Source: Escherichia coli
GTDB lineage: Bacteria > Pseudomonadota > Gammaproteobacteria > Enterobacterales > Enterobacteriaceae
Length of the DNA: 64,000 nucleotides
Direction: 5' to 3' (one strand)
NCBI RefSeq assembly: GCF_046105845.1
Contig: NZ_CP151004.1
Below, piece after piece: positions 30,155-37,271 of the stretch. Below the pieces are notes generated by a model. That model did not search any database. It saw only the letters and a list, made by a program, of their open reading frames with translations, and was not told where the DNA came from. The translations under genes and the position numbers were made by a program. The stretch's first letter is position 1. Every line of letters begins with the position of its first letter.

Positions 30155-31612
30155 GTGTCTGAACTGTCTCAATTATCTCCACAGCCGCTGTGGGATATTT
30201 TTGCCAAAATCTGTTCTATTCCTCACCCGTCCTATCATGAAGAGCAACTCGCTGAATACATTGTTGGTTGGGCAAAAGAGAAAGGTTTCCATGTCGAACG
30301 CGATCAGGTAGGTAATATCCTGATTCGTAAACCTGCTACCGCAGGTATGGAAAATCGTAAACCAGTCGTCTTGCAGGCCCACCTCGATATGGTGCCGCAG
30401 AAAAATAACGACACCGTGCATGACTTCACTAAAGATCCTATCCAGCCTTATATTGATGGCGAATGGGTTAAAGCGCGCGGCACCACGCTGGGTGCGGATA
30501 ACGGCATTGGTATGGCGTCTGCGCTGGCGGTTCTGGCTGACGAAAACGTGGTTCACGGCCCGCTGGAAGTGCTGCTGACCATGACCGAAGAAGCCGGTAT
30601 GGATGGTGCTTTTGGCTTACAGAGCAACTGGTTGCAGGCTGATATTCTGATTAACACCGACTCCGAAGAGGAAGGTGAAATCTACATGGGTTGCGCGGGG
30701 GGTATCGACTTCACCTCCAACCTGCATTTAGATCGTGAAGCGGTTCCCGCTGGTTTTGAAACCTTCAAGTTAACCTTAAAAGGTCTAAAAGGCGGTCACT
30801 CCGGCGGTGAAATCCACGTTGGCCTGGGTAATGCCAACAAACTGCTGGTGCGCTTCCTGGCGGGTCATGCGGAAGAGCTGGACCTGCGCCTTATCGATTT
30901 CAACGGTGGCACACTGCGTAACGCCATCCCGCGTGAAGCCTTTGCGACCATTGCTGTCGCAGCTGATAAAGTCGACGCCCTGAAATCTCTGGTGAATACC
31001 TATCAGGAGATCCTGAAAAACGAGCTGGCAGAGAAAGAGAAAAATCTGGCCTTGTTGCTGGACTCTGTAGCGAACGATAAAGCTGCTCTGATTGCGAAAT
31101 CTCGCGATACCTTTATTCGTCTGCTGAACGCCACCCCGAACGGTGTGATCCGCAACTCCGACGTGGCAAAAGGTGTGGTCGAAACCTCCCTGAACGTCGG
31201 TGTGGTGACCATGACTGACAATAACGTAGAAATTCACTGCCTGATCCGTTCTCTGATCGACAGCGGTAAAGACTACGTGGTGAGCATGCTGGATTCGCTG
31301 GGTAAACTGGCTGGCGCGAAAACCGAAGCGAAAGGCGCGTATCCAGGCTGGCAGCCGGACGCTAATTCTCCGGTGATGCATCTGGTACGTGAAACTTATC
31401 AGCGCCTGTTCAACAAGACGCCGAACATCCAGATTATCCACGCGGGCCTGGAATGTGGTCTGTTTAAAAAACCGTATCCGGAAATGGACATGGTTTCTAT
31501 CGGGCCAACCATCACCGGTCCGCACTCTCCGGATGAGCAGGTTCATATCGAAAGCGTTGGTCATTACTGGACACTGCTGACTGAACTGCTGAAAGAAATT
31601 CCGGCGAAGTAA
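30155..31612 (+). CDS. pepD: cytosol non-specific dipeptidase (aminoacyl-histidine dipeptidase, M20 family)
   Basis: 485 aa from a GTG start; M20 peptidase motifs (HLDMVPQ, MTEEAGMDGA). Confidence 0.9.
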   Translation: MSELSQLSPQPLWDIFAKICSIPHPSYHEEQLAEYIVGWAKEKGFHVERDQVGNILIRKPATAGMENRKPVVLQAHLDMVPQKNNDTVHDFTKDPIQPYIDGEWVKARGTTLGADNGIGMASALAVLADENVVHGPLEVLLTMTEEAGMDGAFGLQSNWLQADILINTDSEEEGEIYMGCAGGIDFTSNLHLDREAVPAGFETFKLTLKGLKGGHSGGEIHVGLGNANKLLVRFLAGHAEELDLRLIDFNGGTLRNAIPREAFATIAVAADKVDALKSLVNTYQEILKNELAEKEKNLALLLDSVANDKAALIAKSRDTFIRLLNATPNGVIRNSDVAKGVVETSLNVGVVTMTDNNVEIHCLIRSLIDSGKDYVVSMLDSLGKLAGAKTEAKGAYPGWQPDANSPVMHLVRETYQRLFNKTPNIQIIHAGLECGLFKKPYPEMDMVSIGPTITGPHSPDEQVHIESVGHYWTLLTELLKEIPAK

Positions 31613-31668
31613 TTATTTGATTTGCTGCCGGATGGCGTTTAATCGCCTTCCGGCAGTTTCATCCTTCA

Positions 31669-32223
31669 TTATCCTTCGATAAAAGCCATCCCTGTAAATG
31701 TCCGTCGCGGGTTGCCACGTTCAATTTGATGATGGAACATTCGCCACTGCGATTTCAGCGCCGCGCTATTTTCCTGTTGCTGTTGTTCCAGCTTCCAGGC
31801 AATCAGCAATCGCGCCAGCCGCTTGTTAGCATGCCCAGAAACCAGTTTTTGCGCCCATGATGAGGCCGATACGGACTCGGACAAATCCACTGAATAGTGC
31901 CGCACCAACTTTCGCTTAATGCCCATGCGTTATCGCCATCCAGAGAAATCAGCGCCGAACGCAGCGTGTCAGAGTAGCGGCCCGTTTCTGTTTCCAGCAC
32001 CGTTACCGCGACGTCTTGCCGGGTAAAAACGGCCTGCGGAGAAGAACGCTGCGCCAATCGGGTAGCCGCGTCCGGGGTGTAAATCTGGCATCCCTACTAC
32101 GCGCTGCATGTTGGGTAAATTTGCCGTGGTGTGTAATTGTTGGATCGCTAAACTCTCGATCCACAGGTCATCAGATGCGATGGTAAATACCGCATAGGAT
32201 AAGGGACGAATATATTTGCCCAT
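31669..32223 (-). pseudogene. prfH: rtcB-like/prfH (release-factor homolog) remnants, frameshifted
   Basis: Three overlapping minus-strand ORFs in different frames: 31969..32223 (RtcB-like N-terminus, ...[14 protein letters not shown]...), 31803..32057 and 31669..31926 (release-factor-like pieces). Needs at least one frameshift to join and lacks most of rtcB. Confidence 0.6.
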
Positions 32224-32467
32224 GTATCATTCCATTTATACTCGTCATACTTCAAGTTGCATGTACTGCGACTCGAATTATTTAGAGTATATAAATATAA
32301 AAATCAGGAAATGGCAGACGAATCCAGGGCAAGAAAAAAGAATTAATCCTGGAAAGGTCTGCAAAGAGTCATTGATAAAGGATTTGTCATGATTTACCTC
32401 CTTGCAGTTTGTGGAATAAGAAAACGCGCACATACCAGGCGGGTGTTATTTTCATTGCAAGCTGAAT

Positions 32468-32920
32468 TTAATGTTGCGGTTTATATCGCATAGAAAAATT
32501 AGTAAACCACGCTCCCCTGCATTCAACGCGCTGCTGCTTAACTGTCTGAAAACCATAACGTTCAAAAAAGGGTTTTGCGGTTATGCTGGCGTCCACCGTA
32601 AGTTCGGATTCAGACTTAATCAAAGGTTTTAACAAAGCGCTGGCAACCCCACAGCGGGTGTATTCAGGGTCAACAAATAACATATCGATATAGTGTTCAA
32701 TGCGGGAAATAAAACCAACCGATTGTGCATTAATGATCGCAACCCACACTTGTGATTTCGCGAATTTCTCCTTCCAGCGAGATTCGTCAATCTGCGCCCA
32801 GGCGGCAATTTGCTGCGGAGAATAGTGCTGACTGGCAGTCATCGTAACCGCTCGAAGGAAAATAGCGCATAGTTGCTGAAAATCGCCAGGCTGATAGTTT
32901 CTTATTTGTATGTTATTCAT
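32468..32920 (-). CDS. yafP: GNAT-family N-acetyltransferase
   Basis: 150 aa; last gene of the dinB-yafN-yafO-yafP cluster. Confidence 0.85.
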   Translation of the reverse strand: MNNIQIRNYQPGDFQQLCAIFLRAVTMTASQHYSPQQIAAWAQIDESRWKEKFAKSQVWVAIINAQSVGFISRIEHYIDMLFVDPEYTRCGVASALLKPLIKSESELTVDASITAKPFFERYGFQTVKQQRVECRGAWFTNFSMRYKPQH

Positions 32921-34801: not shown

Positions 34802-35500
34802 CTAGCGCGTTCGCTGCGAATGCACCTGCTGCTTATCCAGCTTTTGCACCAGCGGCTGCACCACTTTATCCCCATGCTGACCAAAGTATTGATACAGCGT
34901 ATCGGACGCACTTTTGGTCAGCACCATAATCTCAATGCGTCGGTTGCCCGCGCTTTGCGGATTTTTCGCGTCCAGCAGCATCTGGTCCGCCATCGCGCTC
35001 ACCTGCATCACTTTATCTTCCGGCATTCCGGCCTCTTCCAGCACCCGACGAGCCGAAAGCGCGCGATCGCCCGAAAGGTTCCAGTTGTTGTAGATATTGT
35101 TTTTGTAGGCCATCGCATCGGTATGCCCGGTAATAATAATTTTGTTATCGAGCGAGTCGAACACTGGCGCGAGCTCCACCAGCAAAGTTTTAAAGAACGG
35201 CATAATCTGTGCGCTGCCGCGTTCAAACATATTGCGGTTCTGGTCATCTTTAATCAGCACGCGCAGTCCCTGGGGAACAATCTCCATCTCCAGATTCGCT
35301 TCCATATGTGCATCACGGGCAATGGTGTTGATACTGGTCGCCAGCTCGCCAAGCTCAGTAGCGGATTTCTTCTTCAGCAGCGCCGTTTTCTCATTGACGT
35401 CACGCGCTTTTTTCTCCGTCTCTTCCGGCACCGCCACGGTGGCAGGTTTTGGCGGATGAGACGGGCTGATTTTATTTAACGGCGACAACCCGCCGCCATT
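34802..35500 (-). pseudogene. lafU: lateral-flagellar MotB-like protein remnant (Flag-2 scar)
   Basis: C-terminal OmpA/MotB-like region (...IITGHTDAMAYKNNIYNNWNLSGDRALSARRVLEEAGMPEDKV...NRRIEIMVL...) with no N-terminal TM anchor; the 5' part of the annotated ORF is merely antisense to the lfhA fragment. 5' boundary approximate. Confidence 0.6.
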
Positions 35501-35539
35501 GAAAATCGACTGCCCGTGCAGCGCGGCGATAATGCTTTC

Positions 35540-37271
35540 ACGCTCGGATTTACTGACGCTGTTGACAATCAACTTTATCGTCGTCACCAAAGGGGCCGAG
35601 CGTATTTCCGAGGTTTCTGCCCGCTTTACCTTAGACGCGATGCCCGGTAAACAGATGGCGATTGACGCCGATCTTAACGCTGGGTTGATCAACCAGGCGC
35701 AGGCGCAAACCCGGCGTAAAGATGTTGCCAGCGAGGCCGATTTCTACGGCGCGATGGACGGGGCATCGAAGTTTGTGCGCGGGGACGCCATCGCCGGGAT
35801 GATGATTCTGGCGATCAACCTGATCGGCGGCGTCTGTATCGGCATCTTCAAATACAACCTGAGCGCCGACGCCGCCTTCCAGCAGTATGTGCTGATGACC
35901 ATCGGCGACGGGCTGGTGGCGCAGATCCCGTCCCTGCTGCTCTCCACCGCGGCGGCAATTATCGTCACCCGCGTCAGCGACAATGGCGATATCGCCCATG
36001 ACGTGCGCCACCAGCTGCTGGCAAGCCCGTCGGTGCTCTACACCGCCACCGGGATCATGTTTGTGCTGGCGGTGGTGCCGGGGATGCCGCATCTGCCATT
36101 TTTGCTGTTCAGCGCCCTGCTGGGTTTTACCGGCTGGCGGATGAGCAAACGCCCGCAGGCGGCGGAGGCGGAGGAGAAAAGCCTCGAAACGCTGACCCGC
36201 ACCATCACCGAAACCAGCGAGCAACAGGTCAGTTGGGAGACTATTCCGCTGATCGAACCCATCAGTTTAAGCCTCGGTTACAAACTGGTGGCGCTGGTCG
36301 ATAAAGCGCAGGGTAACCCACTCACCCAGCGTATTCGCGGCGTGCGGCAAGTGATATCCGACGGCAACGGCGTGCTGCTGCCGGAGATCCGTATTCGGGA
36401 AAACTTCCGCCTCAAGCCCAACCAGTACGCCATATTCATCAACGGCATTAAGGCCGATGAAGCGGATATTCCGGCGGATAAACTGATGGCCCTGCCCTCC
36501 AGCGAAACCTACGGCGAGATTGACGGCGTGCTGGGGAACGACCCGGCGTACGGGATGCCGGTCACCTGGATTCAGCCTGCGCAGAAAGCGAAGGCGCTGA
36601 ATATGGGGTATCAGGTGATCGACAGCGCCAGCGTGATTGCCACCCATGTGAACAAGATTGTCCGCAGCTATATTCCTGATTTGTTTAACTATGACGATAT
36701 TACTCAGCTGCATAACCGTTTGTCGTCGATGGCACCGCGACTGGCGGAAGATTTGAGCGCGGCGCTCAATTACAGCCAGTTGCTGAAAGTGTACCGGGCG
36801 CTACTGACTGAAGGCGTTTCCCTACGCGATATCGTCACCATCGCCACCGTGCTGGTCGCCAGTAGCACAGTGACCAAAGATCATATTCTGCTGGCAGCTG
36901 ATGTGCGCCTGGCGCTACGGCGCAGCATTACCCATCCGCTCGTTCGCAAGCAGGAGCTGACGGTGTATACGCTGAATAATGAGCTGGAAAATCTGCTGAC
37001 CAACGTGGTGAATCAGGCGCAACAGGCCGGCAAAGTGATGCTCGACAGCGTGCCGGTGGACCCGAATATGCTTAACCAGTTCCAGAGTACGATGCCACAG
37101 GTGAAGGAGCAGATGAAAGCGGCGGGGAAAGACCCGGTGCTGCTGGTGCCGCCGCAACTGCGTCCATTGCTGGCGCGCTATGCAAGGTTGTTTGCGCCGG
37201 GGCTGCATGTGCTGTCGTATAACGAAGTGCCGGATGAGCTGGAGTTGAAGATTATGGGGGCGCTGAGTTGA
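35540..37271 (+). pseudogene. lfhA: FlhA-family export-gate protein, N-terminally truncated (Flag-2 scar)
   Basis: Reading frame carries FlhA motifs (VVTKGAERISEVSARFTLDAMPGKQMAIDADLNAG) but starts inside the membrane domain with no proper N-terminus or RBS; overlaps the lafU remnant. 5' boundary approximate. Confidence 0.65.

Follow-up and report, generated by a model that had tools for sequence, protein, structure and literature searches.

Between yafP and pepD, on the minus strand of the 64,000-nucleotide stretch of Escherichia coli DNA analysed here (the window), lies an rtcB2-prfH remnant at positions 31669-32223. The surrounding gene order, taken from the list of open reading frames (ORFs), is crl, frsA, gpt (minus strand), pepD (plus strand), the remnant, and then yafP, yafO, yafN and dinB (minus strand), which is the K-12 gene order reversed. 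Alignment to intact alleles places the native rtcB2 ATG at position 32223 and the native prfH stop codon at 31669. A first-pass annotation of this DNA had described a decayed rtcB-like/prfH module adjoining pepD, together with three overlapping minus-strand ORFs in different frames; all three ORFs are present, and the module is borne out by profile matches and by alignment to intact pairs. The features of the locus, with the two deletions designated D1 and D2, are as follows.

30155-31612, plus strand: pepD, convergent with the remnant and 3' of prfH'
31625-31656, no strand assigned: GC-rich hairpin (RNA fold -25.1 kcal/mol, z -6.8 against shuffles)
31669-31926, minus strand: ORF3; residues 25-82 match positions 143-200 of 200 of TIGR03072 (PrfH), E 1e-15 (1.1e-15)
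31669-31833, minus strand: second prfH' fragment, codons 151-204 and the native stop, in a frame differing from that of the first fragment (TIGR03072, alignment)
31803-32057, minus strand: ORF2; residues 13-76 match positions 31-94 of 200 of TIGR03072, E 2e-26 (1.7e-26)
31831-31834, minus strand: D2 junction, at a 4-bp microhomology, GCAT (alignment)
31833-32024, minus strand: first prfH' fragment, codons 31-94, part of the rRNA-recognition domain (TIGR03072, alignment)
31969-32223, minus strand: ORF1; residues 1-69 match positions 1-69 of 379 of NF007153 (RtcB2), E 2e-30
31969-32016, minus strand: out-of-frame tail of ORF1, 15 nonsense codons and a stop, which is prfH DNA read in the wrong frame
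32017-32025, minus strand: D1 junction (blastn and MAFFT against intact alleles)
32017-32223, minus strand: rtcB2' fragment, codons 1-69 of 379 (NF007153 match, Pfam RtcB match, alignment)
32224-32467, minus strand: intergenic DNA from the yafP stop to the rtcB2' ATG, the former operon upstream region, which aligns with the intact allele except for an inserted repeat
32240-32296, no strand assigned: short form (57 bp) of an ERIC-like palindrome, its near end 17 bp upstream of the rtcB2' ATG

Matches to NCBIfam models lie far above chance for all three ORFs, which carry RtcB2 residues 1-69, PrfH residues 31-94 and PrfH residues 151-204, respectively. The scores are those of fragments: rtcB2' reaches 105.9 bits against a cut-off of 407 for NF007153 (641.9 bits for the intact allele) and so falls short of a full-length RtcB2, while the two prfH' fragments reach 93.0 and 57.7 bits against a cut-off of 166.65 for TIGR03072 (release_prfH; 327.7 for the intact allele) and do not make up a full-length protein in one frame. 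The models used for RtcB2 were NCBIfam NF007153 and TIGR03073 (release_rtcB) and Pfam PF01139 (RtcB), the last of which gives ORF1 a sub-threshold 23.8 bits (cut-off 27) over positions 1-38 of 426. A Pfam scan found nothing in ORF2 and ORF3, in agreement with the loss of the RF-1/GGQ domain, and no Pfam match in five further mechanical ORFs within 31698-32433 (three on the plus strand, two on the minus strand). The best database match to the yafP-pepD spacer is CFSAN018748, a swine isolate (99.9% identity), in which database matching finds a single copy of the remnant sequence and PGAP labels both genes as pseudogenes ("frameshifted; internal stop; incomplete").

Another decayed module is found at window positions 34802-37271, some 2.6 kb from the remnant. 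Here lafU overlaps, head to head, a flhA-like gene (lfhA) that is truncated at its N-terminus; this arrangement is the scar of the deletion of the lateral-flagella (Flag-2) cluster, which K-12 is known to share. In CFSAN018748 the flhA-like gene carries a pseudogene annotation and is followed by hicA/hicB.

Two deletions and their junctions

Break points were mapped by aligning, with blastn and MAFFT, the intact alleles of 85.0412, C3 and H2, those of K-12, E. coli C and 254D-1, and the window. The first-pass annotation had proposed such an alignment to intact rtcB-prfH pairs; it was run on E. coli alleles from the same locus, which are closer to the window than Salmonella pairs, and the break points resolve into D1 and D2, with no single intact prfH frame emerging. 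The order yafP, rtcB2-prfH, pepD is conserved in the intact alleles (85.0412, C3, H2) and in the remnant ones. Locus and flanking genes are thus those of bona fide prfH, which is the one property of a functional gene that the window retains; by every other mark of a functional RtcB2 or PrfH that was checked, it falls short.

D1 comprises 1027 bp, with which RtcB2 residues 70-379 and PrfH residues 1-30 were lost. Its junction, TTTTTACCCGGCAAGACG, is identical in the window and in K-12 and coincides with an imperfect short repeat, TACCCGRCA, present as TACCCGGCA on the rtcB2 side and as (T/G)(A/C)CCCGACA on the prfH side. As the fusion of rtcB2 codon 69 to prfH codon 31 is out of frame, the 84-residue ORF1 ends in nonsense codons, its translation reading FYPA and then the 15-residue tail, and the prfH frame that follows is opened only by a fortuitous TTG start in rtcB2 DNA. 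The catalytic core of RtcB consists of a metal-binding Cys in the DIGCG motif and of His ligands and a nucleophile downstream; in intact RtcB2 the motif NDIGCGM occupies residues 73-79 (DIGCG from 74), past the break at residue 69, and the window keeps 18% of RtcB2 and none of this core. Also within D1 falls the 4-bp overlap of the rtcB2 stop with the prfH start, seen in the intact 85.0412 allele (L003 3412-3415) and absent here. Since the junction is the same in K-12, D1 is the published deletion of about 1000 nucleotides in K-12 and O157 (Baranov et al., 2006, PMC1586002; Tian et al., 2022, PMC9304027).

Of the seven aligned alleles, the window alone has a cluster of four substitutions within 7 bp, at window positions 32032-32038 (TCTGTTGGT to TCCGCAGGC), corresponding to rtcB2' codons 62-64 (S, V63A, G) and lying a short way upstream of the D1 junction. 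Such clustering resembles the outcome of one multi-nucleotide change or of a micro-conversion more than that of point mutations arising one by one.

D2 removes 169 bp, which is not a multiple of 3: PrfH codons 95-150 and one further base are gone, and the resulting shift of frame creates ORF3. The GGQ motif, residues 120-122 of intact PrfH and hence including Q122, lies inside the deleted segment. The GGQ domain spans PrfH residues 108-161, and Q122 mutants lose PrfH-dependent repair (Tian et al., PMC9304027). By alignment D2 is present in E. coli C and absent from K-12 and 254D-1, and the window allele is therefore more decayed than that of K-12.

The alignment shows a decay in two steps, in which an ancestral deletion between the short imperfect repeats first joined the two genes (D1) and a later one at the GCAT microhomology (D2) took out PrfH 95-150 with the GGQ motif and shifted the frame once more. 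The three overlapping ORFs follow from these two scars. The locus had earlier been called frameshifted and likened to that of K-12, and both descriptions hold in part: the frames do change, although through deletions of 1027 and 169 bp rather than small frameshifts, and the K-12 locus is decayed as well, with an identical D1 junction, whereas the window adds D2 and a shortened upstream ERIC-like element.

Two explanations would leave prfH essentially whole. Homopolymer indels can, as a general point, mimic frameshifts, and the frame breaks might then be sequencing or assembly errors in an otherwise intact gene; yet the frame changes fall at gaps of 1027 and 169 bp, not at indels of 1-2 bp, and 2,672 and 659 genomes, each finished independently, show these junctions too (see below). 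We give this possibility a negligible probability: gaps this large, shared by hundreds to thousands of finished genomes, exclude sequencing error, and the scars are common inherited alleles, not artefacts. The other explanation starts from prfB, the release-factor-2 gene, which uses a +1 programmed frameshift and whose models PrfH matches weakly as a paralogue, so that full PrfH might still be made by a programmed ribosomal frameshift of this kind. However, intact prfH in 85.0412, C3 and H2 is a single ORF, its 204 codons matching TIGR03072 end to end, and the shift in the window sits exactly at the 169-bp deletion, where even a perfect frameshift would yield a product with neither the catalytic domain nor the N-terminal 30 residues. 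A prfB-type gene was rejected on these grounds, frameshifting being absent from the intact orthologues and the frame change coinciding with D2, and there is next to no chance that it accounts for the locus.

Distribution and variation of the remnant

Among the 5,426 complete E. coli genomes surveyed, about 2,672 carry a D1-type remnant, the criterion being a single place that spans 80% or more of the 855 bp. The DNA removed by D1, searched for as a 1018-bp interval, is still present in about 2,675 of the 5,426, which are intact-like by presence of the interval alone. The D2 junction was found in 659 of the same genomes with a 50-bp probe across the junction, each half of which is too short to seed a match by itself. 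A 44-bp probe for the D1 junction proved unusable for counting, as the window-private SNP cluster beside the junction shortened most matches, and coverage of the 855 bp was used instead. About 40 records are at least 99% identical to the window across the whole 855 bp. Plasmids account for six of the matches to the rtcB2-prfH interior, and two copies occur in some genomes, which indicates occasional mobility or duplication of the module in E. coli.

The remnant is already known, decay of the operon in E. coli having been in the literature since 2006, and the allele with both deletions is already present and annotated in hundreds of public genomes. Its closest known counterpart is the K-12 pseudogene pair ykfJ (rtcB2') and prfH, between yafP and pepD, which has the same locus, relative orientation and 1027-bp junction and is 97.7% identical to the window over shared columns. 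The two differ in that K-12 keeps a continuous prfH' frame (codons 31-204) of 168 codons and a stop, whereas prfH' in the window is broken by D2, and in that K-12 has a full 129-bp ERIC and the window the 57-bp short form. E. coli C shares both deletions, with the same junctions, but has the full-length ERIC, in contrast to the short form of the window allele, itself shared at 99.9% with CFSAN018748. Thirteen substitutions are private to the window allele (7 synonymous, 3 non-synonymous and 3 non-coding, too few for a test of selection), and window-private changes include the non-conservative D10Y and R180W. In 23GD35035 similarity to the window remnant ends at base 733 of the 855, close to the 3' end of prfH', and an IS91-family transposase gene replaces pepD (L006 1276-1404); this allele adds another decay state, reached independently, to those of the locus.

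Variation also marks the upstream region. The ERIC-like element of the window consists of the two outer arms only, with a 72-bp internal gap relative to a full copy. This 57-bp form is shared by 254D-1 and the intact alleles of C3 and H2; a full copy of 127-129 bp stands at the same site in K-12 and E. coli C, matching 21 of 22 bases in each of the ERIC1R and ERIC2 primers, and the B2-type intact allele has no ERIC-like element there. The D1 remnants include all four combinations, the short and the full ERIC each occurring with and without D2, which implies either that recombination took place within about 550 bp or that the ERIC core has changed repeatedly.

Signals for expression were sought on both sides of the remnant. 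A scan of 31500-32600 returned no sigma-70 promoter and two terminator-like matches, no more than in shuffles. Expression of rtcBA is sigma-54 dependent; a search of the yafP-rtcB2' spacer with the sigma-54 consensus found no site, the count over the whole window being below chance. An Rfam scan of 31400-32700 found no family, its only hit being a chance sub-threshold snoRNA match (E 0.3). Downstream, the hairpin at 31625-31656 occupies part of the 56 bp that separate the convergent stop codons of prfH' and pepD; it is identical in all aligned alleles and is probably a shared bidirectional terminator.

These observations bear on whether the remnant may have gained a new role, with the 84-residue RtcB2 N-terminal peptide or a remnant transcript being expressed and selected. 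ORF1 does retain its native ATG and upstream context, and the D1 remnant persists in about half of E. coli genomes. Nonetheless, decay continues differently across strains (D2, the ERIC changes, the IS91 insertion), no promoter-like site lies upstream and no Rfam family matches, and the K-12 PrfH fragment, when expressed, went to inclusion bodies (reviewer's report printed with Baranov et al., 2006, PMC1586002). We consider such a role extremely unlikely. A related idea is that the roughly 50/50 split between genomes that keep the D1 interval and those with the remnant reflects balancing or antagonistic selection, in that RtcB2-PrfH might impose a cost on cells that meet no colicin E3-type toxins; the stepwise further decay through D2, with the occurrence of all four D2/ERIC combinations, is what suggests selection of this kind. 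We hold this, and likewise co-option of the 84-residue RtcB2 N-terminal ORF, to be very improbable.

Loss of function and its consequences

What was lost is best gauged against the intact module, known from ATCC 25922 and CFT073 and, for PrfH on the damaged 70S ribosome, from PDB 7SA4, with which the window shares orthologous DNA at the same chromosomal site. In the 85.0412 allele rtcB2 encodes 379 residues and prfH 204, and this intact PrfH matches PDB chain 7sa4_8 across residues 1-204. How the intact module works has been established by experiment. Colicin E3 and CdiA-CT(ECL) cut 16S rRNA between A1493 and G1494; PrfH, which is specific for the damaged 70S ribosome, then frees the nascent peptide, after which the subunits separate and the rRNA of the 30S subunit is religated by RtcB2 (PMC9304027). 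Intact PrfH enters the A site of the cut ribosome and hydrolyses peptidyl-tRNA through its GGQ motif. The operon shields ATCC 25922 from colicin E3, and BW25113, in which it is truncated, is unprotected (PMC9223846).

The segments that the window retains are about 95-96.5% identical to the intact alleles, but compared with the intact module it is without RtcB2 70-379, PrfH 1-30 and PrfH 95-150. Judged by the residues missing, none of the three ORFs would be able to ligate RNA or release a peptide. We conclude that the region is almost certainly what is left of the E. coli rtcB2-prfH operon, a pair of pseudogenes without function; nothing observed speaks against this reading.

The significance of the remnant as such goes little beyond annotation. 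What is called the K-12 pseudogene is one among several decay states of the locus, and D2, together with the short and full ERIC states, could act as a small lineage marker. The strain should lack this defence against decoding-centre ribotoxins unless another copy lies elsewhere in a genome of which 64 kb is in view. Along with K-12, O157 and roughly half of the E. coli sequenced so far, it should fail to repair the cuts that colicin E3 and CdiA make in the decoding centre.
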